NCBI GenBank assembly: GCA_965230975.1
Contig: OZ246402.1
Coordinates: 165,771 to 229,770, forward strand
Direction of reading: 5' to 3'
DNA length: 64,000 nt
DNA from: an uncultured Candidatus Saccharibacteria bacterium
Lineage (GTDB): Bacteria > Patescibacteriota > Dojkabacteria > J137
The notes under the pieces are model-generated. The model was given only the letters and a program-made list of their open reading frames with translations. It did no database searches and was not told the DNA's origin. Positions 2,178-46,580 of this stretch are shown here, in pieces (position 1 is the stretch's first letter; each line of letters begins with the position of its first letter). The position numbers were made by a program, and so were the translations under genes.

Positions 2178-4766
2178 TTAATTTGCAAAATCAATCTTGT
2201 TTCTAAATTTAATAATCTCTTCAAGTATTGGGAAAAACAAAGAGCTTACAAAAATCGTTGCCAGCAGTTCTAAAGGCAATATTACCATCTTAAAGAAATC
2301 TCCAAATACATAAACAATAACTCCCCATGCTATAAGTGCAAAAATGGCAGATATTAAATTAAATTTATTACTAAAAATTCCGTATGAGAATACAGATTCT
2401 TTAAAGCTTCTTGCTGTAATAACTCTAAACATGTTGTGAAATATGTATGCGGTAAAAGTTGCTGTTTGTGCAAAAACGACCCCGTTTGGTAGTGTTAAAT
2501 AAAAAACAGCAAACAGATAAATGCTTGTAAAAAAACCTTGAATAAATATGCTTCTCCACATCATTTTGTTAATAATACCCTCGCTCTTTTTTCGGGGTTT
2601 TTCACTTAAAATATCCGCCGGTTCCTTTTCAATTGCCATTGACATTGCAGGTGCTGCATCTGTAAGCAGGTTAATTAAAAGTAACCCAATTGGTGTAAGA
2701 GGAACCGGTGTTCCAGTAGCAAAACTTAAAAGAAAAACCCCAACTTGGCAAATGTTTCCGCTTAATAAAAAATGAAGGTATAGTCTTGTTCTATAAATTA
2801 TTACCCTACCAACTTTTACCGCATTCCCTAAAGCGCTGTAATCTCCGGTTACAACTACATCTGCCGCATCTTTAACAATATCCGTGGCGTTAACGACCGC
2901 AATGCCAACGTCTGACTTAGAAATCGCTACGGCGTCGTTAACGCCATCTCCAGCCATAGCAATGCTTTTGTTTCCTTCTTGAAATATATCAATTAGCATG
3001 TTTTTGTGTTGTGGGGTAACTCTTGCAAAAACTGAACAATTTACAATATCTTGCAAATTTAAGTCACCTTTTTTATTTATGTAATTTTCTAACTCTTCTC
3101 CAGTTATAACTCTTTGTGTTGTGTCATTTATAATCCCGGCTTGTTTGGCGATTGTTCTTGCAATTTCTTTATGGTCGCCGGTTATCATAATTGGTCTTAT
3201 TCCCGATCTTATTAGATTTTGAACTGTATCAAATACTTCATCACGAATAGGATCTATTAATGCTATTAATGCAACAAATACCAGTTTGGATTCATCTATG
3301 TCTCTAACTCCAGGTTTGTGATTTTCACTAAATTCTCTTACAGCTAAAGACAACACTCTGTAACCTTGAGATGCTAATTCTTCAAATTGATTTAATATTA
3401 CCCCTTGGTATTGTTGGGTTAAGTTTTTTATTTTGTGATCTATAGGGTCAAGATATTCTGTGCATAAAGGAATCATTAAATCTGGTGCACCTTTTGAGTA
3501 ACCAACAAGTTTAGATCCTTTTTTATTAATTACCATCATTCTTTTTACACTACTAGAAAACCTATGTTCGTGAACTCTATCTCCAATATCGAACTCAAAC
3601 TCTTTTGATTTTAAAAACTTAATTAAAGCATCTTCTGTGGCACCTTTTTGGTTATTACAATAGTTTATAATTTCTAAAACTTTCTGCTCTGTTTTGTTAT
3701 TAGGATTAAAATCGTTTGCTTTAATTTCTTTTCCAAACACCCAGATTTTTGATAGTGTCATTTTGCCCGTAGTGATAGTACCGGTTTTGTCAGTAGCCAA
3801 AACAGATACTGACCCTAGACCTTCTGCTGCTATTAATCTTTTTATTATTACATTCTGTCTAACCATTTCTCTAACTCCAATTGCCAATGTGACAGTCATT
3901 ACAGCACTTAAGCCTTCTGGTACAAATGCGATTGCCAAAGAAAGTGATTGAATCAAAGACTCTGTGATTGTTTGCCCTCTAATTACTCCAAAAACTAAAA
4001 CCAAAAAGCTTACCCCTAGAGTTAAAAACAATATTATTTTGCTCAACTTTTCAAGTTGATGTTGCAAAGGTGTTTGTTTATTTTCAGATTCTGCAAGCTT
4101 TTCTGCAATTCTCCCAAGCTCTGTTCTTTGTGCTGTATTTACTACCACTGCTTTGCCGTTTCCTTCAACAACAAATGTACCGCTAAAAACCATGTTTTTT
4201 TGATCTCCAATAGATAGGTTTTCCTCTTTTAAAACTGCTATATCTTTTGAAACAGAAACGGATTCTCCGGTTAGAATACTTTCATCTGTTTGCAGTTCGT
4301 TTTCTTCTACTACTCTTGCATCTGCCGGGATTTTGTCTCCCTCATGCAAATAGATTAAATCACCTGGAACTATTTGAGATATATCTACAACTATTTTCTT
4401 TCCTTCTCTTATTACGGTAGCTTCCAGCGAGGTTAGTTTTTTTAATTTTTCTAAAGCATTACCGGCTGTGTTTTCTAACACAACACCAATCAAAGACATA
4501 AATAATACTATTGAGATTATTAAAATGGATTCGATTGTTTCTCCGGTTAAGCCTGCAATTATTGCTGTCCCAATAAGTAATAAAACGATTGGATTTTTTA
4601 TTTGGTCTATAAAAAGTTTAAAAATTCCATCTCTCTCTTTAATCTCTATCTTATTTTCTCCATATTCTTTTAATCTTAAGCTAGCTTCTTGATTGGTTAA
4701 TCCATTCTCTAAATCAGTCTTTAAACTTGTAGCGATTTCTTGAGGTGATAGGTTGAATCCGGTCAT
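2178..4766 (-). CDS. cation-transporting P-type ATPase (type IIA Ca2+/Mg2+-like)
   Basis: 862 aa. Phosphorylation motif DKTGTITTG, TGDHKEIA, hinge MAGDGVNDAVA, and multiple transmembrane segments at both ends. Confidence 0.9.
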   Translation of the reverse strand: MTGFNLSPQEIATSLKTDLENGLTNQEASLRLKEYGENKIEIKERDGIFKLFIDQIKNPIVLLLIGTAIIAGLTGETIESILIISIVLFMSLIGVVLENTAGNALEKLKKLTSLEATVIREGKKIVVDISQIVPGDLIYLHEGDKIPADARVVEENELQTDESILTGESVSVSKDIAVLKEENLSIGDQKNMVFSGTFVVEGNGKAVVVNTAQRTELGRIAEKLAESENKQTPLQHQLEKLSKIILFLTLGVSFLVLVFGVIRGQTITESLIQSLSLAIAFVPEGLSAVMTVTLAIGVREMVRQNVIIKRLIAAEGLGSVSVLATDKTGTITTGKMTLSKIWVFGKEIKANDFNPNNKTEQKVLEIINYCNNQKGATEDALIKFLKSKEFEFDIGDRVHEHRFSSSVKRMMVINKKGSKLVGYSKGAPDLMIPLCTEYLDPIDHKIKNLTQQYQGVILNQFEELASQGYRVLSLAVREFSENHKPGVRDIDESKLVFVALIALIDPIRDEVFDTVQNLIRSGIRPIMITGDHKEIARTIAKQAGIINDTTQRVITGEELENYINKKGDLNLQDIVNCSVFARVTPQHKNMLIDIFQEGNKSIAMAGDGVNDAVAISKSDVGIAVVNATDIVKDAADVVVTGDYSALGNAVKVGRVIIYRTRLYLHFLLSGNICQVGVFLLSFATGTPVPLTPIGLLLINLLTDAAPAMSMAIEKEPADILSEKPRKKSEGIINKMMWRSIFIQGFFTSIYLFAVFYLTLPNGVVFAQTATFTAYIFHNMFRVITARSFKESVFSYGIFSNKFNLISAIFALIAWGVIVYVFGDFFKMVILPLELLATIFVSSLFFPILEEIIKFRNKIDFAN

Positions 4767-5605
4767 GTTTGTAAATACTTAATAAAAAAGTTGTAAATGT
4801 CTATAACGTTAGAAGGTTGGTTTTGTAAACCTCTCTTTCCTTCGGGAGATAAAAATGGTGAATCTGTTTCAAAATAGATCCCCTTTTTGTAAAAATCGAT
4901 AGGGCTGTAGTCAAAAGATACTTTGCCTAAAATTTGTTTATAAACTTCTCTTAGTTGGCTTGCATTTTTAAAGGTCACTATACCATTTACCCCCAGGCTC
5001 CAACCCGAATCTAAAATTGCTTTTGCAGTATTATAATCTCCGGTATAAGAATGAAAAATTCCTTTGCAGTTATAGCTTTTTACAATTTCTAAGCACTCTT
5101 TTTCTGCCCACCTAGAGTGAATAGAAAGTGGCATATTATATTCTTGAGCTAGTCCTAGGTGTTTATTAAAAAGTACTCTTTGAAGGTGTTTGCTTCTCTC
5201 TTTTGTTTGGCTATCTAACTCACTTTGTTCAAAGTGATAGTAATCCATTCCGGTTTCCCCAATGCCATAAACCAATTCTTTATTTAAATCGATTAATTCT
5301 TTCAACTTTTGTATTTGATCTTCTACCCACTCCTCTTTATTTTCTAAACCAACAAATAAAGTTGATCCAGGTTCAAAAACTTCGGGGTCAATCCCAACAA
5401 ATGCTTTTAAATAGCTATTTGAGGATTTTGCCTGTTGAATCACTTTGATAGACGAATCTAAATCTATGCCCATGTTTAAAACTTCACTCAAACCAACTTT
5501 TTTAGCGTTTTCGATTGAATTAGTCATGTCACTGTCTGAAAAGTATGCTAAATGGGCATGTGAATCAAAGAGGGTATGTATTTTTAGGGTCTCAAAAAGT
5601 GTCAT
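4763..5605 (-). CDS. TatD-family metal-dependent hydrolase/DNase
   Basis: FDSHAHL (HxH), GIGETGMDYY, LSIHSRWAE, GIFHSYTGD and YFETDSPF match the conserved TatD motif series. 4-nt overlap with the upstream ATPase gene. Confidence 0.75.
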   Translation of the reverse strand: MTLFETLKIHTLFDSHAHLAYFSDSDMTNSIENAKKVGLSEVLNMGIDLDSSIKVIQQAKSSNSYLKAFVGIDPEVFEPGSTLFVGLENKEEWVEDQIQKLKELIDLNKELVYGIGETGMDYYHFEQSELDSQTKERSKHLQRVLFNKHLGLAQEYNMPLSIHSRWAEKECLEIVKSYNCKGIFHSYTGDYNTAKAILDSGWSLGVNGIVTFKNASQLREVYKQILGKVSFDYSPIDFYKKGIYFETDSPFLSPEGKRGLQNQPSNVIDIYNFFIKYLQT

Positions 5606-6059: not shown

Positions 6060-6611
6060 ATGTCAAAATCTTTTATAAAACTTTTAGACAATGCATTGCT
6101 ACCTGCTAGCTTAATGCTTGTATCTAAGTTTGTTGGCATATTCTTTATCATCAGATTTTTCAATTTAGATTGGGTAGTTCAGCAAACTCCTAATAACTTT
6201 TTATCATTTCAAACAGTATTGTCTGCTCAAAATGTAGTTTTAGTTACTTCGTACTCAGATTTAATTATGTTTTGTGCAATTGCCTTGGGTTTTACTATTA
6301 ATTTGTTAAAGGCAATTTTTTTGCATAATTCTCACATTAGTCCTCAAATGCTTAATAGGCTTGCCAATAGAAATCTGCTATCGTTAATTAAAAATTCATA
6401 TGAGATTTACCACTCTGCTTCGGTTTGGTTGTTCTTTTTGTGGGTTGCTGTAGCTATTGTTATTACAAATACTTTAAATAATGCAATTTATAGTTGGGTT
6501 GGTTTGGCTACTTTGCTTGTTAGTATTTTGTTAACGATTGTATTCTTTCAAGATGTTTATAAGGAAATTGAAAACGCAAGACTTCACCCAGGAAAATATT
6601 TAAATCAATGA
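6060..6611 (+). CDS. hypothetical integral membrane protein
   Basis: 183 aa with about 5 hydrophobic helices. No recognisable motif. Confidence 0.4.
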   Translation: MSKSFIKLLDNALLPASLMLVSKFVGIFFIIRFFNLDWVVQQTPNNFLSFQTVLSAQNVVLVTSYSDLIMFCAIALGFTINLLKAIFLHNSHISPQMLNRLANRNLLSLIKNSYEIYHSASVWLFFLWVAVAIVITNTLNNAIYSWVGLATLLVSILLTIVFFQDVYKEIENARLHPGKYLNQ

Positions 6612-8799: not shown

Positions 8800-10269
8800 A
8801 TGACTCTTACTAAAGAAAAAGTTTTAGAACTTTTATCAAATATTAAAATTGCTAAAGTAGTTTCGTTTTTTAAAAATGAAAACTCTGACCATCTGTTGGT
8901 GGTTAAAATCCTTACTGAAGAAGGTGAGAAACAGATTGTTACTGGCGCAGACAATTTTAAAGAAGGAGATTTAGTTCCATACCTTGGTGTTGGTTTTGTT
9001 GTTCCAGGTTTTTTATTTAAAGGTGATGAGGTTACTTTAGAAGCTAGAAAACTTAGAGGTTACGATTCTTTTGGTATGATTTTAGCAGAAGATGAAATTG
9101 GTTTAAGTGAAGATCACGAAGGTATTATGGTTGTTCAAGGTTCAGATGAATTGATTGGCAAATCAATAATAGATGTTTTAACTGAAGATCAAATTGCAAA
9201 TGTATTAAAAAATGCTGGAGTTGTAGAACTGACACCAGAGATCAAATCAAAAGTGGATTTAATAACAAGAGAATTACAAGAATTCGTAGGTGTAGAAGAT
9301 ATGCCAGCAATTTTAGCAGAAAGATCTTTAAAGATTTACTGGGGAACTGCACCTACTGGAAAGCCCCACTTAGCATATTTTGTACCAATGATGAAAATAG
9401 CAGACTTATTGCAAGCGGGTTGTGAAGTCACAATTCTTTTTGCAAATATACATGCATTTTTAGATAACATGAAATCAACATGGGAGCTATTAGAATACAG
9501 AACTCAATACTACCAATTAATAATTACAGAGATATTAAAAACAGTTAACGTACCAGTAGATAAACTGAAATTTGTTGTAGGAAGGGATTATCAATTAAAA
9601 GAAGATTACACCTTAGATGTATATAAAGTTGCAGCATTAGCATCTTTAAGGGATGTGCAAAAAGCAGGTGCAGAAGTAGTAAAACAGGTAGAAAGCCCGT
9701 TATTAAGTGGAATGCTTTACCCTATCTTGCAAGCTTTAGATGAAGAATATCTTGAAGCTGATGCTCAGCTTGGAGGTGAAGATCAACGAAAAATATTTAT
9801 GTTTGCAAGAGAATACCTTCCAAAGATAGGTTACAAAAAAAGAATACATTTAATGAACTACTTAATTCCAGGGTTAGGCAAATCAGGCAAAATGTCTTCT
9901 AGTGAGCCTAATTCAAAAATTGATCTAGATGATTCAGATGAGATTATCAAGGATAAAATTCAAAAAGCCTACTCTTTAGATAGGCAAGTAGAAGGAAATG
10001 GTTTATTAGCGGTACTAAGATTTATTATCTTTAGGAAGTTAGAGTCACAAGAAAGAAGCTTAAAGATCTCAAGACCTGAAAAATGGGGAGGCGATGTTGA
10101 ATATGCAAATTACAAAGACTTGGAAAATGATTTTGCTGAAGGTAAGTTATCTTCTGTGGATTTGAAACCAATAGTTGCGCAAGAGATAATAAGCTTAATA
10201 AGCGGTATTAGGGAGACAATAAAAAATAATGCTGATTTACTAAACAAGGCTTACCCAAAAAATAATTAA
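8800..10269 (+). CDS. tyrS: tyrosyl-tRNA synthetase, archaeal/eukaryotic type, with an N-terminal EMAP-II/Myf-like tRNA-binding OB domain
   Basis: The core aligns along its length to archaeal TyrRS. PTGKPHLAY is the HIGH-type motif. ANIHAFLDNMKS, DYTLDVYKVAALASLRDVQKAG, YPILQALDEEYLEADAQLGGEDQRKIFMFAREYLPK, KMSSS and RPEKWGGDVEYANYKDLE each match the M. jannaschii TyrRS counterparts. The first ~160 aa (KIAKVVSFFKNENSDHLLVVKI...GDLVPY...RGYDSFGMILAEDEIGL) have the tRNA-binding (Myf/CsaA/EMAP-II) fold signature. Confidence 0.85.
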   Translation: MTLTKEKVLELLSNIKIAKVVSFFKNENSDHLLVVKILTEEGEKQIVTGADNFKEGDLVPYLGVGFVVPGFLFKGDEVTLEARKLRGYDSFGMILAEDEIGLSEDHEGIMVVQGSDELIGKSIIDVLTEDQIANVLKNAGVVELTPEIKSKVDLITRELQEFVGVEDMPAILAERSLKIYWGTAPTGKPHLAYFVPMMKIADLLQAGCEVTILFANIHAFLDNMKSTWELLEYRTQYYQLIITEILKTVNVPVDKLKFVVGRDYQLKEDYTLDVYKVAALASLRDVQKAGAEVVKQVESPLLSGMLYPILQALDEEYLEADAQLGGEDQRKIFMFAREYLPKIGYKKRIHLMNYLIPGLGKSGKMSSSEPNSKIDLDDSDEIIKDKIQKAYSLDRQVEGNGLLAVLRFIIFRKLESQERSLKISRPEKWGGDVEYANYKDLENDFAEGKLSSVDLKPIVAQEIISLISGIRETIKNNADLLNKAYPKNN

Positions 10270-14340: not shown

Positions 14341-14370
14341 AAAGGCCCCGACAAGGTCGGGGCCTTTTAA
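14341..14370. terminator. bidirectional rho-independent terminator
   Basis: GGCCCCGAC-AAG-GTCGGGGCC (9-bp GC-rich stem, 14344-14364) flanked by AAA and TTTTAAA. Sits between convergent genes ending at 14286 (+) and 14387 (-). Confidence 0.8.
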
Positions 14371-17400: not shown

Positions 17401-17435
17401 AAACAAAAAAAGGGCCTTTCGAAGAAAGGCCCTTG
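17401..17435 (-). terminator. rho-independent terminator for the 520-aa gene (minus strand)
   Basis: GGGCCTTT-cgaag-AAAGGCCC (17411-17431). Read on the minus strand it is followed by a T7 run (complement of 17404-17410). Confidence 0.7.
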
Positions 17436-22934: not shown

Positions 22935-22970
22935 AAAAAGAAGACCCCCGATTTCTCGGGGGTTAGAAAG
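22935..22970. terminator. rho-independent terminator between convergent phr and the glsB-like gene
   Basis: ACCCCCGA-tttc-TCGGGGGT (22944-22963). On the minus strand it is followed by CTTCTTTTTGATTTT. Confidence 0.7.
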
Positions 22971-23709: not shown

Positions 23710-26700
23710 TCACCACCTACTATACATCAAAACTTTATGATCTTCAGCTGTTTTTGGTACCTCGTTCCAAATATATTGTGTAATAAATGGAATGAACGGG
23801 TGCAACATTTTCAAGTACTCTTTCAAAACATAAACCATTGTTAAAACTACCTCTTGTCGTATTTTTGCATCTGGTTCCGAAATTATTGCACCACTTTCTC
23901 TATCTTTAACTGTGTTTATAAATGGTTTTGATTCTTCTATTAGTACATCACAAAATGTTTTCCAAAATTCTTCGTACAATGTTTCTGTTGCGTAACCAAA
24001 TTCATAAGCGTCAACGTTTTTTGTAACTTTTGATTTCACCTGCTTAATGTGCTCAACTAATTTGATCGAAAATTCGTTTGATACTTTTTCTGCATCAAAG
24101 TTTGCTGGCTCTACTCCTTCTGCATTTGTAAGTACAAATCTGCTAGCATTCCAAATCTTATTCATGAATTGCTTAAAGTTTTTTAGCTTGTCGTATGTGA
24201 TTGCATAATTTCCGCCTGCTTTGTTTTGGTAAAAGTAAACCATTCTTACTGCGTCAGTTCCATATTCACTAACGATTTTGTCCATATCAATCATGTTGCC
24301 TTTAGATTTACTCATCTTTTGTCCATCTGTTCCTAAAACTAACCCTGTTAAGAATAAGTTTTCAAATGGAATTTGCTTGTCATGAAAGTAGGTAAACATC
24401 ATCATTCTTGAATCCCAGTTTTCTAAAATATCATGTGCGGATACTAAAACTTTTGTAGGGAAGAATGTGTCTTTTAAGTTGTGAGCTTGTAAAGTTGCAT
24501 AAACCCATTGTCCACTGCTAAACCAAGTGTCTAAAACGTTTTCGTCTTGATGCCATTCGGAAGTATTAAGTTCTAAGTTATAAGTTGTGAGATCTTTTTG
24601 TGGCTCAAATACAAAAGTAATCTTTTCTAGGTTATCGTGAGGTTTATTAACAATATCTTTGTAATCTCTATCTTTTAGTTTGTTTTCAAGTGTTCTTAAT
24701 ACTCCACCATGAGTCACGATTAATACCTTATTACCTTGATATTTTGTTTTAATCTCTTCGAATGCTCTTAAGATTCTCGATTCAAAGTTAGGGATTGTTT
24801 CAATATTGGCTTTTTCGGGGTGGTTATCAACCAAGTCGTAAATATCATTTGCAAATTCCGGGAATTTTTTAATGGCCTCTGCTCTAGTTAATCCTTCAAA
24901 GTCCCCAAAGTTCTTTTCTCTTAAGTTGGAATCTTTAATTATCTTGCTTTTATCAAAACCTATTTTGTCTGCAATTATCTCTGCAGTTTGAATCGCTCTA
25001 TTTAAATCTGAGCAAATAATGTAGTCATAGCATTCTGTGGATTCAAAATTTCTTGCTTGCTCTTTTCCTTTTTCTGTCAAATCAGTATTTGTATGACCAC
25101 CGAATCTCTTTTCAACATTAGCAATTGTCTCACCATGTCTAATAACATCAATAATTGTTGAATCAGGATTATGTAGCTGTACTCTTAAATGATTAGGGTT
25201 GTCGTATTCAAGTGGAATCCAATCTTGATTTTGCCTTTTTTCTCTTTTCATTTGAATCATATACAATTCTCCAGGTCCTTCTTTTCGACCTTCAACTGGG
25301 TATTCTTCAAATCCAAATTTTAAATAGAACTCTTTTAAATTAGCTTTTTCAGGGGTTGCAATGTGTATCTCTAGTTTATCACCAAAATCATCTAAAACTT
25401 TATACATTAATAGTTTACCCACTCCCTGTTTTTGATACTGCTTGCTTACATAAATATTTAGCCAATGTATTCTATCTGTATCCCTGATATTTTCTAAATC
25501 AATCCAACCAATAACTTCCCCATCTTTTTCTGCAATAAATACGATATTGTTTTCATCAATAATCATATCTTGATACTCTTTTATCTTTTCAAGATCATCC
25601 GATTTTCTACCATATTTATTAGCAATAACTTCTGCAGTGACACCTCTCTCTTCGTCAATAAAACTTTGCATCCAACCTTGAACATCAATCTCGTGCATGA
25701 TTGATGCATCTTTGAGTTCAGCTTTACGAATAGTGATGTCGCTGTGTGTATAAAAAGGCTTTGTTAGCCTAATCAGTTCTCTAACCTGTCCATTTTCATC
25801 AATTTCTTCTTTAATTTCTCCGTGGTACCAAACTGGTAATCTGTAACCCCACCAAAGGCTTCTTGAAATTGCCCAATCTCTTAGGTTTTCCATCCAGTGG
25901 TTAAATTTATCTACCATGTTTTCTGGGTGAATAGTAACTTGGCCATTTTTTACCATTTCTATTGCAGCCTGCTTTATGTTGTTTTCTGGAGTGTCGTATT
26001 TTAAATACCATTGAGAAGATAGAATTGGTTCAATTAAAGCTCCTGTTCTTTCAGATTTATTAATACTTTGTTTAATAGATTCCTCTTTAATTAAGTATCC
26101 TTCATTTTTCAAATCTTCGATTATTAAATCTTTAACCTTAGTGTATTTTTGATTCCTATACTTTTCAGGTACATAATCACTTACAAGCATTAGATTGCCA
26201 TCGATAATATTTCTGGCTGTAATTGATTTGTTAGGATTCTCTTTGTTCCATTCAAGCATTGTTTGATAGTCATCTTGAGAGTGTGCAGGAGTAATTTTTA
26301 GTGCTCCAGTTCCAAAGTCTGTTAAAACTTTATAGTTAGTAATAATTGGGATTTTAATATTAGTTAAAGGAATAATAACCTCTTTACCAACAATATCTTT
26401 GTATCTAGGGTCAGATGGATTAACCGCTACTGCTGTATCTCCAAACATCGTTTCCGGTCTTGTTGTTGCAACAGTTACAGATTTAGAACTGTCATCTGCA
26501 AACTTATATTGAAGATAGTAAAGTTTCCCGTCTCTCTCCTCTCTTACCATTTGATTATCTGCAACTGCTGTTCGTGCTTTTGGGTCCCAGTTAACAATTC
26601 TTACACCCTTATAAATCATACCTGCTTTATACATTTCTACAAATGTATTTAAAACAGTATCTACAACTCTTGGGTCTAATGTAAAAATATTTCTGTCATA

Positions 26701-27162
26701 ATCTGCCGAAAGACCAATATGCTTTTCATCATTCATTGCAATCTCCATATTCTTTTTAAAGAACTCCATCATCTCGGCATAAAAATCCTCTCTAGTCATA
26801 TCAAACTTGTTTCTACCCTGCTTTTCTAAAACATCTCTAATAAAAACGCCTTCACCTTCAAGCCCAGCATGATCTTTACCCGGCAAAACTAAAACTTTCT
26901 TACCCTGCATTCTGGCATATCTAGCCATTGCATCTTGATAAGCGTAACCGGAAATGTTTCCAATGTGAGGCCTTGCATAAGCGTTTGGCGGCGGACAAAT
27001 TAATGCCCATGGTTCTCTTGGATCTGCCTTCATCTCTTCAACTGACATTAATTTGTCCGTTGTAGGATTGTATTCAGGCTTGTGATAGCCGTTATTAAGC
27101 CATAAATCTAAAATTATCTTTTCGTATTCTGTTGGGTTGTATGGACCTTGTGGTAGTGACAT
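23710..27162 (-). CDS. valS: valyl-tRNA synthetase carrying an internal GNAT + histidine-phosphatase insertion
   Basis: CPPPNAYARPHIGN (HIGH), the CP1 editing domain TTRPETMFGDTAVAVNPSDPRY, NHWMENLRDWAISRSLWWGYRLPVWY, DENVLDTWFSS and GQKMSKSKGN identify ValRS. Between PVWY (aa ~446) and DVLDTWFSS (aa ~877) there are ~425 aa, where E. coli ValRS has ~35. There is no C-terminal coiled-coil. Confidence 0.9.
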   Translation of the reverse strand: MSLPQGPYNPTEYEKIILDLWLNNGYHKPEYNPTTDKLMSVEEMKADPREPWALICPPPNAYARPHIGNISGYAYQDAMARYARMQGKKVLVLPGKDHAGLEGEGVFIRDVLEKQGRNKFDMTREDFYAEMMEFFKKNMEIAMNDEKHIGLSADYDRNIFTLDPRVVDTVLNTFVEMYKAGMIYKGVRIVNWDPKARTAVADNQMVREERDGKLYYLQYKFADDSSKSVTVATTRPETMFGDTAVAVNPSDPRYKDIVGKEVIIPLTNIKIPIITNYKVLTDFGTGALKITPAHSQDDYQTMLEWNKENPNKSITARNIIDGNLMLVSDYVPEKYRNQKYTKVKDLIIEDLKNEGYLIKEESIKQSINKSERTGALIEPILSSQWYLKYDTPENNIKQAAIEMVKNGQVTIHPENMVDKFNHWMENLRDWAISRSLWWGYRLPVWYHGEIKEEIDENGQVRELIRLTKPFYTHSDITIRKAELKDASIMHEIDVQGWMQSFIDEERGVTAEVIANKYGRKSDDLEKIKEYQDMIIDENNIVFIAEKDGEVIGWIDLENIRDTDRIHWLNIYVSKQYQKQGVGKLLMYKVLDDFGDKLEIHIATPEKANLKEFYLKFGFEEYPVEGRKEGPGELYMIQMKREKRQNQDWIPLEYDNPNHLRVQLHNPDSTIIDVIRHGETIANVEKRFGGHTNTDLTEKGKEQARNFESTECYDYIICSDLNRAIQTAEIIADKIGFDKSKIIKDSNLREKNFGDFEGLTRAEAIKKFPEFANDIYDLVDNHPEKANIETIPNFESRILRAFEEIKTKYQGNKVLIVTHGGVLRTLENKLKDRDYKDIVNKPHDNLEKITFVFEPQKDLTTYNLELNTSEWHQDENVLDTWFSSGQWVYATLQAHNLKDTFFPTKVLVSAHDILENWDSRMMMFTYFHDKQIPFENLFLTGLVLGTDGQKMSKSKGNMIDMDKIVSEYGTDAVRMVYFYQNKAGGNYAITYDKLKNFKQFMNKIWNASRFVLTNAEGVEPANFDAEKVSNEFSIKLVEHIKQVKSKVTKNVDAYEFGYATETLYEEFWKTFCDVLIEESKPFINTVKDRESGAIISEPDAKIRQEVVLTMVYVLKEYLKMLHPFIPFITQYIWNEVPKTAEDHKVLMYSRW
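24583..25161 (-). other. histidine-phosphatase (phosphoglycerate-mutase-like, branch 1) domain embedded in valS, about aa 668-860
   Basis: IIDVIRHGETIANVEKRFGGHTNTDLTEKGKEQAR carries the RHGE catalytic His motif. ICSDLNRAIQTAEII and LIVTHGGVLRTL supply the second catalytic His motif. Confidence 0.7.
25243..25725 (-). other. GNAT (N-acetyltransferase) domain embedded in valS, about aa 480-640
   Basis: IVFIAEKDGEVIGWIDLE...HWLNIYVSKQYQKQGVGKLLMYKVLD...ANLKEFYLKFGFEE is the GNAT beta4-alphaC acetyl-CoA-binding Q/RxxGxG/A motif plus a C-terminal YxxxGF. Confidence 0.7.
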
Positions 27163-27360
27163 GGTACGTTCAATAACAATTATTTATTACTGAGGACGGG
27201 TATTCCGTGGTACCACCTCTATTCTCTTGATTGAAGATCAAGACTTATTTCTTAAGCTGTAACGGGCTTGTCCCGAAAGATTCTACTTTTGGTTACTCAA
27301 TTTCTTTCTTTCACTTTCCAAGTGACGTTTCTTGGATATTGCGTGTTAGTTGAATTATAC
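27163..27360 (-). promoter_or_regulatory. valS 5' leader with a T-box-like antiterminator element; candidate -10 TATAAT at 27354-27359 on the minus strand
   Basis: Minus-strand RNA reads ...GAAUAGAGGUGGUACCACGGAAUACCCGUCCUCAGUAAUAAAUAAUUGUUAUUGAACGUACC-AUG. GAGGUGGUACCACGG matches the T-box consensus AGGGUGGNACCGCGG in 12 of 15 positions. It folds as helix A1 GAGG/CCUC, a 7-nt bulge UGGUACC (N = U, complementary to discriminator A73 of tRNA-Val), and helix A2 ACGG-AAUAC-CCGU. Upstream hairpins include UCUUGAU-cuuca-AUCAAGA, CGGG-acaag-CCCG and CCAAG-n8-CUUGG. Confidence 0.5.
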
Positions 27361-27474
27361 AATAAGAAGATAATTAGTGCTATGGGGTTATTGCTTAAGA
27401 TTACGGTTCTCTAAAATAGACAATGGCAAATATTTTATAGTAAACTTTGTAAGTTAGTTTTTAAAGTAAGCAAT

Positions 27475-27990
27475 ATGAATGACATGCCAACCTCCTCTCG
27501 TAAAAATTTTGATGAAGATACTATCAGAAACTTTTTTAGAGTAGAAGGTAATCAAATTGATAATGTAAAAGTAAATATTTTTCTTAGAATGGTTATTGAA
27601 CAAGTTATTCAACAATTAAAAGGCTTTGAGCAAATAGGAGTCGCAAGGAAACAATTTGATATAAGTAGTCTCAGAGCTTTGATAAGAAATACTTTGAGGT
27701 CAGCTATTCAGACATTAACTCAGAATATATACATGGTTGAGAGGGGCGTGCCAGTCAAGCAGGGTGCCTTAGTAGGGTTTTCTCAGGAAGAGTTGCAAAT
27801 TCTGTTAGCTGCTATATCCAATAGAATACCGAGAGAAAATGTTAGTGGTAAGTTCGATTATGTTGCAAAGTCGGAACTGGAGGATCTACTAAATAATGCG
27901 TTTACAGATATAGACTTTGAGAATGCTGAAGATAGAGAACTATTGATGAATGAACTTAAATCAGTATCCGGTAGATTATTGGGGAATTAA
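27475..27990 (+). CDS. hypothetical protein
   Basis: 171-aa ORF divergent from valS. No recognised motif. Confidence 0.4.
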   Translation: MNDMPTSSRKNFDEDTIRNFFRVEGNQIDNVKVNIFLRMVIEQVIQQLKGFEQIGVARKQFDISSLRALIRNTLRSAIQTLTQNIYMVERGVPVKQGALVGFSQEELQILLAAISNRIPRENVSGKFDYVAKSELEDLLNNAFTDIDFENAEDRELLMNELKSVSGRLLGN

Positions 27991-28013
27991 ATCCCCAATT
28001 CAGCATTTTTTTA

Positions 28014-28364
28014 TTAGGTAAGCCTCTTCTTCAACTCCTCGTTCTCTTTAATTAGGGCTTCTATTGCTTTATAGGTAAGTTCGTTAAACTTTTGTTGTTT
28101 CATGCTCTGTTTTTCAATAACGTTAACAACCGTATTAATTATTAATCCTTGAACTTTTGTTTTTACCTTGCCAATAAAACCACCTCTCTCTCTAGATTTG
28201 AATGAATATAGCGAACCCAAAACATCTTTAGAACTTTTTAAACCCGGAAGTAAATATTCTTTAAGCAATGTAGAGTTATCAATATCATTTACAGAATTAT
28301 CAATACCCTCTTCTTTTAAAAGTGAATTAACTTTATCTAACAACTCTTTACTCTTTTCTTCCAT
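28014..28364 (-). CDS. hypothetical coiled-coil protein
   Basis: 116-aa K/E-rich ORF, 17 nt downstream of the 367-aa gene on the same strand. Confidence 0.35.
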   Translation of the reverse strand: MEEKSKELLDKVNSLLKEEGIDNSVNDIDNSTLLKEYLLPGLKSSKDVLGSLYSFKSRERGGFIGKVKTKVQGLIINTVVNVIEKQSMKQQKFNELTYKAIEALIKENEELKKRLT

Positions 28365-43148: not shown

Positions 43149-46100
43149 TTAAAAACTAGAATCAGACTCCATTAAAGCGGAAACTGTCTCATCATTTCCT
43201 ATAGAATCAACAATTTCTTCAAGCGCCATATCGCTTCTTTCTTCGTCATATTCTGGATTAATTTTATCCATCTTTATTCCTAAACCTGCTAACTCTTTGT
43301 CCAATACATTAAATGATTCTGGAACTGTTGGAGCTGTAATTCTTTGACCTGAAATTATAGCTTTGTAAGCTGCCGCTCTACCAACTACGTCATCTGACTT
43401 AATTGTAAGCATTTCGTGCAATACATGTGGTACTGCGTGAGCCTCAAGTGCCCAAACTTCCATTTCTCCAAATCTTCGTCCTCCTCTTTGAGCTTTACCT
43501 CTAAGTGGCTGTTGGGTTACTAATGTGTATGGGCCAGTTGATCTTGCATGTACTTTGTGATCTGCCAAGTGGTCTAGTTTGAATGTGTATTTCATTCCAA
43601 CTGTTACTTTGTGGTTGAACTTTTCTCCTGTTCTACCATCAAATAGATCAACTTTTTCTACATAATCTAATCCTTGGTCTTTAGCCATTTGGATTAACTT
43701 ATCTAGGTCGTATTCAGCAAAAGGTTGTACTTCTACTTTTACGCCTAATTTATGTGCCAATTCCCCAACATGTGTTTCTAATAACTGACCAAGGTTCATT
43801 CTTCTGATCATTGAGATCGGGTTAAGAATGATGTCTACTGGTCTTCCATCTTCTGTGTAAGGCATGTCTGCTTCTGGAACGATCTTTGTAACTACTCCCT
43901 TGTCTCCGTGGAAACCTGTTAATTTGTCTCCAACTGATATTTTATGAGTTTTAGCTACCCATACTTTAACTTGTTTAATTACACCAGCGTTTAATTTTGC
44001 ACCGCTTGATCTATCTAATACTTGAATTCCAACTACAACTCCATGTTCTCCATGGGGAACTCTTAGCGAGTTGTCTCTAACATCTCTTGCATATTCTCCA
44101 AAGATTGCTCTTAATAATTTTTCTTCTGCTGTTAATTCTGTTTCTCCTTTTGGGGCAATGATTCCAACTAATATATCGTTAGATTGAACATTTGCACCGA
44201 TTCTAACTACACCTTCTTCGTCTAAGTTTCTTAAAGCCCATTCTCCTACACCCGGAATATCTCTTGTTACTTGTTCGTTTCCAAGTTTTGTTTCTCTAAT
44301 TTCTTGTACATATTCTTGAATATGCACAGATGTTAAAACGTCATCTTTAACTAATCTTTCAGAAATTACCATTCCGTCTTCAAAGTTATAACCATCGTAT
44401 ACAACGTAAGCTACTCTTAAGTTAGCACCTAATGCTAGCTCTCCGTTTTGACTACAAGGAGCATCTACTAAGACCTCTCCTTTATCAAACTTGTATCCAG
44501 GTAATACATTTACGCTTTGTGAGAAAGATGAGTTTTGATTTGTTCTTACAAATTTCTCTACTGGGTAAGTTACTTTGTTTTTTTGACCTTTGTATTGAAC
44601 AACAACTTTTTGAGCGTCCGCTTCTATAACTTCACCAGCTTCTTCTGCATAAATTGCTCTACCGGTTGCTTTAACTGCATCTTTTTCAAATCCAGTTCCA
44701 ACAATAGGAGAATCTGCTTTTACTAGTGGAATTGCTTGAGTTTGTGTCTTTGCTCCAATTAATGTTCTGTTAGGGTCATCGTTTCCTGCAAAAGGAATTA
44801 ATGAAAGTCCCATTGCTCCGATTTGTGCTGGACTAACGTCTACTAAGTCTACCTCGCTTGTAGGCACCTTAGCGTAGTTTGCACCATCTCTAACGTAAGT
44901 TGCTTTTTCTAAAATGTTTCCGTTTTCATCTGTATGAATACTTGAGCTTCCGATTTTGTGAGAAGCTTCTTCATCTGCATCTAGGTAAACAATCTCTTTT
45001 AACACAAATGGCATAACTTTAAATTCTTTAATACCCTCTTTTTCAATTTCAGCTAATGCTTTGTCTGTAATTACATCTCCAGCTTTAGCAATTGTTTTTT
45101 TACCACCAACAACATCTGTTCCAAATCTTCTGCCATTTAAGATATCTTTTTTGTCTTTCTCAAAGTTGAACTTGTTAACAACCTGATAGTAAGGTGCTTC
45201 TAAAAATCCAAATTCGTTAATGCTTGTATAGATTGCCATTTGGTTTACCATACCAACAGATGGACCCTCTGGAGTTGTTACAGGACATAATCTTGAGTAA
45301 TGAGAGTTGTGAACATCTCTAACAGAGAATGTTGCTCTCTCTTTTGTAAGTCCTCTTGGACCACCAGCGGAGATTTTTCTTTTTACTTCAAGTTCTGAGA
45401 ATACATTTTCTTGGTCCATGAATCTCATTAATGCAGAGCTACCAAAGAATTGATTAACTGCAGATATGATTGGTCTTGTATTAACAACCATTGCTGGTGT
45501 TACTTTTTCATCTGTAGAGTAAGTACTCATTTTGTCTCGGATGTTCTTTTCCATAATTAGAACACCGATTCTTAACTTTTCTGCTACCAATTCATCTACA
45601 CCTCTGATTCTTCTGTTACTTAAACTATCAATGTCGTCTGATTGTCTTACGCCATGATTTAATTCAAGTAAACATTTCATTACTTCTACAATGTCTCTCT
45701 TTTTTAATGTGTAGTCTGCAACTGTAAAGTCTTCTGTAATGCCAAGTTTTTTGTTTAGTTTATATCTACCAATTTTACCTAGGTAGAATCTTCTTTTGTT
45801 AAAGAAGATGTTATCTATTAATGCTTTTGCATTTTCAATTGTTACTGTATCTTCTGGTCTTAATTTTCTGTATATATCTATTAAAGCTTCTTCTGTATTT
45901 TTTGTTGGGTCTTTTCTTAGTGTTGCATCAATAAAGCTAGCTTCTCCCTTGTCAGAGTCTCCTAATGCTTTTTTGATTTCTGAATCTGAACTGTAACCTA
46001 ATGCTCTTAATAATGTAGTTAATAGGATTCTAGGTCTTTTTTGAAGCAGTTTAATGCTCATTACTCCGTATTTGTTTACTTCAAATTCGTACCAGTTACC

Positions 46101-46580
46101 TCTGTGAGGCATTAGTTTTACAGAATAAAGTCTCTTTTTTGGTGTTGATGCCTTGCTTTCACTAAATAAGACTCCTTCTGATCTTAAAATTTGGAAAACT
46201 ACTACTCTCTCGTTTCCGTTAACCATGAAAGAACCTCTGTCGCTCATGATAGGCATGTCTGCCAAAAAGATTTTTTGTTTTTTAATTTCTCCAGTTTTTT
46301 TGTTAACTAGTCTTATGTTTGCGTGTACGGGTGCGTCGTATGTTAATCCTAATAATTGAGCATCTCTAAAAGAGATTTTTGGTTCACCCCAATTAAAATC
46401 CTCAAAAGATAATTCCCAAGAATTACCTGTGTAATCTGCAATTGGTGATATTTCATCAAATAATTCGTAGAATCCGTTTTCTACAAATTGTCTAAAAAAC
46501 TTCTTTTGAGCCTCCAATAAGTCCATATCCAGGTGTGGAGTTGGGTTCTTGGTGAGGTTTACTCGGGTGACATTTGGCAT
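43149..46580 (-). CDS. rpoB: DNA-directed RNA polymerase subunit beta
   Basis: 1143 aa. Conserved beta blocks throughout (for example GFHGDKGVV, LGQLLETH, RFGEMEVWALE). Confidence 0.95.
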   Translation of the reverse strand: MPNVTRVNLTKNPTPHLDMDLLEAQKKFFRQFVENGFYELFDEISPIADYTGNSWELSFEDFNWGEPKISFRDAQLLGLTYDAPVHANIRLVNKKTGEIKKQKIFLADMPIMSDRGSFMVNGNERVVVFQILRSEGVLFSESKASTPKKRLYSVKLMPHRGNWYEFEVNKYGVMSIKLLQKRPRILLTTLLRALGYSSDSEIKKALGDSDKGEASFIDATLRKDPTKNTEEALIDIYRKLRPEDTVTIENAKALIDNIFFNKRRFYLGKIGRYKLNKKLGITEDFTVADYTLKKRDIVEVMKCLLELNHGVRQSDDIDSLSNRRIRGVDELVAEKLRIGVLIMEKNIRDKMSTYSTDEKVTPAMVVNTRPIISAVNQFFGSSALMRFMDQENVFSELEVKRKISAGGPRGLTKERATFSVRDVHNSHYSRLCPVTTPEGPSVGMVNQMAIYTSINEFGFLEAPYYQVVNKFNFEKDKKDILNGRRFGTDVVGGKKTIAKAGDVITDKALAEIEKEGIKEFKVMPFVLKEIVYLDADEEASHKIGSSSIHTDENGNILEKATYVRDGANYAKVPTSEVDLVDVSPAQIGAMGLSLIPFAGNDDPNRTLIGAKTQTQAIPLVKADSPIVGTGFEKDAVKATGRAIYAEEAGEVIEADAQKVVVQYKGQKNKVTYPVEKFVRTNQNSSFSQSVNVLPGYKFDKGEVLVDAPCSQNGELALGANLRVAYVVYDGYNFEDGMVISERLVKDDVLTSVHIQEYVQEIRETKLGNEQVTRDIPGVGEWALRNLDEEGVVRIGANVQSNDILVGIIAPKGETELTAEEKLLRAIFGEYARDVRDNSLRVPHGEHGVVVGIQVLDRSSGAKLNAGVIKQVKVWVAKTHKISVGDKLTGFHGDKGVVTKIVPEADMPYTEDGRPVDIILNPISMIRRMNLGQLLETHVGELAHKLGVKVEVQPFAEYDLDKLIQMAKDQGLDYVEKVDLFDGRTGEKFNHKVTVGMKYTFKLDHLADHKVHARSTGPYTLVTQQPLRGKAQRGGRRFGEMEVWALEAHAVPHVLHEMLTIKSDDVVGRAAAYKAIISGQRITAPTVPESFNVLDKELAGLGIKMDKINPEYDEERSDMALEEIVDSIGNDETVSALMESDSSF

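Follow-up and report, generated by a model that had tools for sequence, protein, structure and literature searches.

The valS leader in a 64,000-nucleotide stretch of contig OZ246402.1 (the window; positions count from its first letter) is almost certainly a genuine, functional-looking T-box for tRNA-Val. Its structured part is complete and spans 27335..27192 of the minus strand, with the T-box motif GAGGUGGUACCACGG (GAGGTGGTACCACGG) at 27219..27205; the leader sequence on this strand reads ...AAUAGAGGUGGUACCACGGAAUACCCGUCCUCAGUAAUAAAUAAUUGUUAUUGAACGUACCAUG. By its architecture and proposed mechanism, the leader is a T-box that represents an undescribed variant of a well-known switch. The explanation that we favor for the whole, with moderate confidence, is a tRNA-Val-specific T-box that gates a translation start independent of a Shine-Dalgarno (SD) sequence.

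Detection of the T-Box

A sequence-only reading of this DNA had described a T-box-like antiterminator in the valS leader, and the motif is as described there. In a local scan in E-value mode, 27342..27189 matches the Rfam T-box model RF00230 from end to end and scores 46.7 bits (E = 2.7e-9). When the 64-kb window is searched with all 4227 families, the E-value of this match is 4.2e-7, and the valS leader is the sole RF00230 match. The E-value of the scan is therefore significant, as that reading required, but the gathering score of 93 bits is not reached, and at gathering thresholds Rfam returns zero matches anywhere in the 64-kb window. The alignment covers the AGUA motif of Stem II, the CGG...CCGUUA of Stem IIA and the F-box, Stem III, and the T-box proper, whereas 86 model positions in the distal part of Stem I correspond to just 19 nucleotides (nt) in the leader. 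It is because of this contraction that the score is only about half of the threshold, and routine annotation overlooks the valS T-box because its score lies below that threshold. A custom covariance model, R1, was built from relatives, with an alignment (A2) of eight leaders; the relatives are loci retrieved by searches with valyl-tRNA synthetase (ValRS) and are designated by L-numbers. R1 finds one site only in the window, the valS leader, with 41.5 bits (E = 1.4e-9). It also recovers the leader of L001, which is outside its seed, at 41.9 bits; L091 is in the seed.

Architecture of the valS Leader

The features of the leader are collected in Table 1. Stem I is a 5-bp hairpin, and the long Stem I of class I T-boxes, with its K-turn, specifier internal loop, and distal elbow-binding platform, is not present. 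The layout is that of the ultrashort (US) class: a short Stem I, the Specifier in its terminal loop, and no elbow platform. A perfect TATAAT lies 18–20 nt upstream of Stem I in all six of the terminator-less leaders (see below), and in the window the transcript would start near 27347, about a dozen nt before Stem I. With the −10 box only 18 nt away, there is no space for a long Stem I.

The specifier is a valine codon followed by a purine, and it matches the amino acid of the downstream gene. The sequence GUCA is invariant among the leaders whose sequence covers Stem I (window, L001, L004, L005/6, L007, L008, L010, L090, L091, L094, and L009), all of which stand before valS. It is constant even in the distant L094 and in the reduced copy of L009, with the stem below it varying freely. 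The window uses GUC less than any other valine codon (30 of 919), and this rarity fits the known preference of specifiers for NNC, which accounts for 57.6% in TBDB. The two candidate specifiers proposed from sequence alone, CCCGUUAC and AAGUCU, are both other conserved parts of the T-box. The former is the 3′ strand of Stem IIA together with the F-box, and the latter is the conserved AAG linker together with the 5′ strand, or foot, of Stem III.

Table 1. Coordinates of the features of the valS leader and its gene (all on the minus strand of the window)
Feature	Position	Sequence or remarks
−10 box (probable)	27359..27354	TATAAT; from sequence, 18 nt upstream of Stem I
Ultrashort Stem I	27335..27318	CCAAG (27335..27331), 8-nt loop AAACGUCA (27330..27323), CUUGG (27322..27318)
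Specifier	27326..27324	GUC (Val), followed by conserved purine A (27323); 3′ end of the Stem I terminal loop
Stem II	27311..27276	base helix AAAGA/UCUUU; AAGAA (5′) and AGUAGAA (3′) purine-rich, S-turn-like strands
Stem IIA hairpin	27275..27263	CGGG-ACAAG-CCCG
F-box	27265..27260	CCGUUA; aligned to the RF00230 consensus CGg..cCGUUA
AGCUU linker	27258..27254	candidate partner of the IIA loop (AAGC) in a Stem IIB pseudoknot
Stem III	27243..27225	UCUUGAU-CUUCA-AUCAAGA; conserved AAG just before
Discriminator (antisequestrator)	27219..27192	A1, 7-nt bulge UGGUACC, and A2
Helix A1	27219..27216 / 27195..27192	GAGG / CCUC
T-box bulge	27215..27209	UGGUACC
Helix A2	27208..27205 / 27199..27196	ACGG / CCGU, loop AAUAC
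Hairpin P (candidate sequestrator)	27193..27170	UCAGUAAUAA-AUAA-UUGUUAUUGA; 3′ arm covers −17..−8
Start region	27167..27158	GUACCAUGUC (−5..+5); complementary to the T-box 5′ strand GA.GUGGUAC (27219..27210)
valS (regulated gene)	23710..27162	1150 amino acids, ATG 27162..27160; Pfam tRNA-synt_1, Anticodon_1, and an editing-domain match

Downstream of Stem I, the order of elements is Stem II with its S-turn, Stem IIA/B with the F-box, and Stem III, and Stems II, IIA, and III are each backed by covariation. The base helix of Stem II shows double-sided changes in five of five pairs, and its AGUA/GAA motif aligns with the Stem II consensus of Rfam. Stem IIA and the F-box are almost invariant, with a single compensatory change, CAGG/CCUG, in L090. 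Stem III shows double-sided changes in four of its five counted pairs. A Stem IIB pseudoknot between AGCUU and AAGC is weakly suggested by the sequences; of the two pairs tested, one is an invariant G-C, and the other is A-U in five leaders, U-A in L004, and a mismatch in two.

The discriminator has the 7-nt UGGNACC bulge between A1 and A2 that is expected of a T-box. The strands assigned to A1, bulge, and A2 in the sequence-only reading are correct and are backed by covariation, with A2 covarying in three of three counted pairs and A1 in two of four. The UGGU of the bulge is kept in 9 of 11 leaders, the exceptions being L090 (UGGC) and L091 (ACGGUAC). Pairing of the bulge base U with A73 of tRNA-Val is plausible on this model; the UGGC of L090 implies either a G73 discriminator or a mismatch. 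A search for tRNA genes found none in the window and none in 19 related loci.

Conservation and Covariation

The window has a G+C content of 32%, and its RpoB (43149..46580) has Candidatus Dojkabacteria / WS6 as its best named relatives, at up to 77% identity, which places the genome in Dojkabacteria and bears out the earlier suggestion of a host from the candidate phyla radiation (CPR). The window ValRS is 58–81% identical to the ValRS of Dojkabacteria-like relatives. The element recurs before valS in relatives, where the sequence-only reading had suggested looking for it: ten leaders (L001, L004, L005/6, L007, L008, L010, L090, L091, L093, and L094) share the architecture, two of them partially. 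Full architecture is found in L001 (69% ValRS identity to the window; JBGSZB01, a metagenome-assembled genome of Dojkabacteria), L005/L006 (72%), L007 and L008 (both 62%), L010 (81%), L004, L090 (54%), and L091 (56%). The partial leaders are L093 (70%), which lies on a partial contig, and L094 (47%), which lacks Stem IIA/B. The relatives' leaders score 42–56 bits with RF00230, except L091, which is seen with R1 only (39 bits, as a member of the R1 seed); leaders at about half the Rfam gathering threshold are missed by standard annotation. No T-box was found in L003, L085, L086, L087, L088, L089, L092, or L095, and L011 offers just 231 nt of upstream sequence. The same ValRS search also returned about 30 Firmicutes-like loci with long class I valS T-boxes and terminators.

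Every helix carries compensatory changes in a manual structural table of nine leaders, which contains 2 non-pairs in about 230 cells. In Stem I, all five pairs show double-sided changes among relatives (e.g., CUAAG/CUUAG, CUUAG/CUAAG, CCUAA/UUAGG, and UCCGA/UCGGA). A MAFFT alignment of full leaders (alignment A1) misaligned Stem III and part of Stem II, and alignment A2, an ungapped core alignment of eight leaders trimmed by hand to the structure, was used instead. In A2, 98.7% of cells are paired, a figure biased upward by the trimming, and double-sided changes occur in 21 of 28 pairs. The covariation score is 0.78, as compared to 0.27 ± 0.03 for shuffled alignments, and 0 of 500 shuffles reach it. 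Sliding the partners by 1–3 columns lowers pairing to 32–62%. Within the clade of leaders that lack terminators (ValRS 62–81% identical), GUCA, AGUAGAA, CCGUUA, and GGUGGUA are invariant, and the adjacent spacers have diverged beyond alignment.

The sequence-only reading had also raised the possibility that the palindrome GTGGTACCAC is a DNA operator of a dimeric repressor. In favor of an operator, its 10 bp form a perfect palindrome, located in the intergenic region between divergent genes. However, there is one exact copy in 64 kb, and the two copies with one mismatch both lie within coding regions. The palindrome is broken in L001 (GGUGGUAACGCC), in L001 and L004 (GGUGGUAAC), and in L090 (GGUGGCACC), while the RNA pairing is kept, and partial symmetry is inherent to the T-box consensus. 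Being unique in the window and not conserved among relatives, the operator is effectively refuted.

Expression Platform

A terminator search across 26900–28100 found no terminator-like site, in agreement with the earlier observation that no intrinsic terminator separates the element from the AUG. The leader thus has no intrinsic terminator of the T-box kind, which would share sequence with the 3′ half of the antiterminator and compete with it. GC-rich hairpins followed by U-tracts are found at gene ends (22963..22944 at the end of the valS operon, 14367..14341, and 17434..17410), and because canonical terminators are used elsewhere in the genome, their absence from the leader is informative. 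SD motifs are scarce. Among open reading frames (ORFs) of at least 150 amino acids, GGAG, GAGG, AGGA, or AAGG at −22..−4 occurs in just 2 of 46. None precedes valS, and the same is true of its relatives with the exception of L094. The SD-pairing sequestrator of the US class is present in L094 but not in the window, and the earlier suggestion of SD sequestration as in actinobacterial T-boxes does not hold in its literal form. From the near absence of SD use and the lack of a terminator, we propose that the switch gates translation initiation at a single-stranded landing region around the AUG. The T-box probably acts on translation initiation; what the folds below show is thermodynamic coupling.

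The spacer contains a candidate sequestrator, hairpin P. The U and C that end the A1 3′ strand take part in its first two pairs, one of which is its only G-C pair. Its predicted stability is −6.2 kcal/mol, which falls to −1.8 kcal/mol without the two shared pairs. The same drop is seen in L005 (−5.5 to −1.0 kcal/mol) and L007 (−8.8 to −1.7 kcal/mol), and a smaller one in L010 (−11.1 to −7.6 kcal/mol); the hairpin of L007, CUCAUAAAUU/AAUUUAUGAG, contains the AUG. Coupling between A1 and the spacer was quantified as the difference in ensemble free energy of CCUC, the spacer, and the first 18 nt of coding sequence with CCUC free or blocked, and was compared with 300 spacer shuffles. The window gives 4.5 kcal/mol versus 0.6 ± 0.9 kcal/mol for shuffled spacers, with a fraction of 0.007 of the shuffles (about 2 of 300) reaching this value. 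Coupling is also significant in L007 (6.9 kcal/mol, fraction 0.007), L010 (4.1 kcal/mol, 0.010), and L093 (3.5 kcal/mol, 0.013), for a total of four of the seven SD-less leaders. Summed over all seven, coupling is 20.4 kcal/mol versus 5.6 ± 2.2 kcal/mol, which 0 of 300 shuffles reach. L094, the SD-containing positive control, gives 6.3 kcal/mol (0.000).

A functional tRNA-Val T-box could instead act on transcription, with hairpin P as a weak non-canonical terminator, or with factor-dependent (e.g., Rho) termination or RNase attack on the unbound leader. Most known T-boxes are transcriptional (PMC7583486), and the nearest outgroup leaders with a short Stem I (L090, L091, and L009) carry strong intrinsic terminators whose 5′ arms overlap the 3′ strands of A2 and A1: a −31 kcal/mol hairpin with U6 in L090, a 15-bp stem with U6 in L091, and a −33.7 kcal/mol hairpin with U7 in L009. 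The terminator-less, SD-less form is limited to the closer clade of the window, at 62–81% ValRS identity. In the window leader, however, the search cited above found no terminator-like site, an absence made meaningful by the genome's own gene-end terminators. Hairpin P consists almost entirely of A-U and G-U pairs with one G-C, and it is followed by ACGUACC rather than a U tract. The AUG lies 29 nt past the end of A1, not 38 nt downstream as first read, and this distance is typical of translational platforms. We therefore regard transcriptional control of the window valS as unlikely.

In the proposed translational mechanism, the ultrashort Stem I would display GUC-A in its terminal loop, and the Stem II S-turn together with Stem IIA and the F-box would complete the decoding module, with Stem III and A1/UGGUACC bulge/A2 forming the discriminator. 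By analogy with solved T-box–tRNA complexes, the anticodon GAC of tRNA-Val would pair with GUC, and the 3′ ACCA of the uncharged tRNA would pair with UGGU, stack on A1, and stabilize it. Without uncharged tRNA, the last nt of the A1 3′ strand may nucleate hairpin P. The released T-box 5′ strand would then pair with −5..+5, and the resulting three-way junction would bury the start site. Upon binding of uncharged tRNA-Val, A1 would form, hairpin P would lose its base and its only G-C pair, retaining about −2 kcal/mol, and the AU-rich start region would become accessible. In the minimum free energy (MFE) fold of 27222..27155, the pairing of GUACCAU.UC (−5..+5) with the T-box 5′ strand forms such a three-way junction with A2 and hairpin P (−22.6 kcal/mol, z = −3.8, 0 of 200 shuffles). 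The free fold is 10.6 kcal/mol more stable than the fold in which the antisequestrator is forced. Accessibility of −12..+6 with the antisequestrator forced versus free changes clearly in the window and L007 only. When the T-box 5′ strand is blocked, no conserved alternative for the 3′ strand appears except a weak GUCC::GGAC pairing with Gly-Pro codons. On these folds, hairpin P and the three-way junction can be put forward only tentatively as the OFF state in the window.

The main determinant of the OFF state could also be the T-box 5′ strand together with the bulge, which would pair as an anti-start element with ACCA- or CC-rich mRNA (−5..+20) until the tRNA 3′ end competes for UGGU, hairpin P being incidental. 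The GGUGGUA strand pairs with the start-proximal region in all unconstrained folds of six leaders. The window duplex of −14.1 kcal/mol is the best of 46 window start regions and falls in the top 1.2% of 45-mers, and 0 of 1000 shuffles of the last 12 nt of the untranslated region reach it. In L008, a synonymous-codon test gives p = 0.004. However, the complementarity arises mostly from conserved Leu-Pro and Gly-Pro-Tyr codons, which also occur in the T-box-less L003 (−14.1 kcal/mol), the position of the partner ranges from −5 to +20, and there is no enrichment under synonymous randomization in four of six leaders. These observations make an anti-start element an improbable primary switch, if somewhat less so than transcriptional control. 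The codons themselves (27160-27135; CUACCAC, GGUCCAUA) are shared by the ValRS clade and are complementary to GGUGGUA and GUCC; because this complementarity is also seen in T-box-less relatives, it may be coincidental. On the same grounds, the idea that selection made the first codons complementary to the T-box strand was rejected, and the pairing was retained only as a secondary feature specific to the window.

Several points weigh against a T-box that gates an SD-independent start. The evidence is wholly computational, the expression side included, and both the anticodon GAC and the discriminator A73 of tRNA-Val are assumed. The Rfam score is half of the gathering threshold. Trimming by hand fitted the covariation alignment to the structure and so raises the pairing figure, a bias mitigated by the slid controls and by the independent match to L001. 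Coupling is not significant in three of the seven SD-less leaders: L001 (0.2 kcal/mol, fraction 0.347), L005 (1.3 kcal/mol, 0.290), and L008 (0.0 kcal/mol, 0.780). In the window, hairpin P and A1 overlap by 2 nt only. The pairing between the T-box strand and the start is not conserved as such in relatives; the partner of the start region varies between leaders, and there is thus no single conserved sequestrator. This pairing is also unspecific, with the start region of the T-box-less L003 scoring equally and randomization of synonymous codons giving p ≈ 0.5 in four of six leaders.

A further alternative, allowed for in the sequence-only reading, is that the leader is vestigial: an ancestral transcriptional T-box would have lost its terminator, and what is left would be decaying and without regulatory effect. 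The missing terminator would agree with this, as would the loss of the whole element in L003, L085, L087, L088, and L092 and the reduced copy in L009, which lies about 145 nt upstream of a valS with its own promoter-like site. Against decay, compensatory changes keep every helix paired, the terminator-less clade shows no variation in the functional nucleotides, the promoter distance is fixed, and the spacer is significantly coupled to A1. A remnant is accordingly quite improbable, more so than either of the functional alternatives.

Comparison with Known T-Box Systems

The closest counterparts of the window leader are the US (class II) translational ileS T-boxes of Actinobacteria, such as those of Mycobacterium smegmatis and M. 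tuberculosis (10.1101/2023.02.28.530422, PMC7583486, PMC11297988). Both have a short Stem I with a terminal-loop Specifier and no elbow platform, the Stem II S-turn, the IIA/B F-box, Stem III, and an A1/UGGN-bulge/A2 discriminator, and in both the AUG follows closely with no terminator. US T-boxes all regulate ileS and respond to tRNA-Ile, according to a 2023 preprint (10.1101/2023.02.28.530422), whereas the window leader precedes valS in a CPR host and carries the tRNA-Val specifier GUC. It also has no SD to sequester; instead, the competing hairpin shares 2–3 nt with A1 and extends over either the AUG itself or a landing region that has no SD. Moreover, relatives of the window join a short Stem I to intrinsic terminators. 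In TBDB, the search for class II T-boxes was confined to Actinobacteria and to truncated class I matches (PMC7778990). A 2020 review states that translational T-boxes hide or expose the SD and that transcriptional ones generally need a long Stem I (PMC7583486).

With the class I transcriptional valS T-boxes of Firmicutes, the type of the RF00230 seed, the leader shares the regulated gene, the T-box sequence AGGUGGUACCGCG, and the order of Stems II, IIA/B, and III. The Firmicutes examples (L012–L039) have AGGTGGTACCGCGG...CGTCCTAGAC with terminators. Unlike the window leader, they have a strong terminator and a long Stem I (K-turn, specifier internal loop, and distal platform), about 67 nt of which are missing from the window leader, and R1 scores the Firmicutes valS leaders at 11–23 bits only. 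As in translational riboswitches generally, a ligand-stabilized helix competes with an occluding hairpin, with the AUG no more than about 30 nt from the sensor. In the window, however, the predicted ligand is a tRNA and the occluded region has no SD, such that SD-independent initiation would be controlled.

T-boxes are regarded as a system of Firmicutes and Actinobacteria, with scattered cases in other phyla. A full-text search for papers that mention T-boxes alongside CPR, Patescibacteria, or Saccharibacteria returned none, although the literature covered is limited and this absence is not proof. Among documented riboswitch-type regulators of aminoacyl-tRNA synthetases, the leader may be the first from CPR. 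L094 is a textbook sequestrator, in which AUCGUCCCUUU, the 3′ strands of A2 and A1, pairs with the AAGGG SD (−16..−9) and the start CGAU. It is conceivable, though we hold this with reserve, that Dojkabacteria and neighboring CPR lineages carry their own valS-dedicated branch of T-boxes with an ultrashort Stem I, in which one sensor serves three outputs: SD sequestration (L094), elbow-less intrinsic termination (L090, L091, and L009), and SD-independent start occlusion (window). If so, the window leader would for the first time show SD-independent initiation gated by a T-box, and elbow-less T-boxes could work co-transcriptionally, against the current generalization. The leader and its relatives challenge three views, namely the phylum range of T-boxes, the picture of the ultrashort class as ileS-only and SD-sequestering, and the need of transcriptional T-boxes for a long Stem I. 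The grounds are a CPR host with a reduced genome, valine specificity, an essentially SD-less genome, and sister leaders with terminators. The family would join three alternative outputs to one natural sensor, compact at about 145 nt, and would be of use in working out how tRNA sensing is relayed to the output.

Related Leaders and Genome Context

Among the relatives, L090 (573-775) and L091 (599-815) have a canonical intrinsic terminator alongside an ultrashort Stem I and are apparently transcriptional with no tRNA-elbow platform. L009 (1218-1347) contains a minimal T-box-like element, in which Stem I (CUUCAG-ACUCGUCAC-CUGAGG) is followed by an A-rich linker of about 35 nt and, with no Stem II, IIA/B, or III, by AAAG-UGGUACC-GUC..GAC-CUUU and the terminator. 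This element could be either a relic or an extremely reduced T-box. In L004, an ORF of about 120 amino acids is inserted between the T-box (2322-2518) and valS (region 2322-3000), and the T-box would thus control the inserted ORF first. Read by eye, the translation of this ORF is similar to the four-helix-bundle "23S rRNA intervening sequence" proteins. In L085, L087, L088, and L090, valS is called as two or three consecutive ORFs (426 + 163 + 303 amino acids in L090), which could reflect frameshifts, assembly errors, or insertions.

The leader lies in a 312-nt divergent spacer between valS and an unannotatable 171-amino-acid ORF on the plus strand. A second aminoacyl-tRNA synthetase gene at 8800-10269 (plus strand) encodes a class I enzyme of the Trp/Tyr type with an N-terminal tRNA_bind domain. 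Neither RF00230 nor R1 finds a T-box-like leader there, and T-box control in the window is thus specific to valS. Several genes (e.g., those starting at 5605 on the minus strand and at 6060 and 49658 on the plus strand) have a TATAAT-like box about 6–8 nt before the ATG, a spacing that suggests leaderless mRNAs.

The catalytic core of the window ValRS holds two extra enzyme domains (24598-25593, minus strand; residues 524–855), a GNAT acetyltransferase (residues 524–629) and a histidine-phosphatase/PGM-like domain (residues 673–855). They flank a conserved NWxPLxYDNPxHLRVQ block and are absent from the ValRS of L001, L003, and L004. A search with this insertion (residues 480–870) returned one free-standing phosphatase only and no further leaders. 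An insertion of about 115 residues, different from this one, is found at another place in the ValRS of L003 and L004, and ValRS fragments of other relatives carry other foreign Pfam domains (ASCH+Ham1 and AMP-binding).

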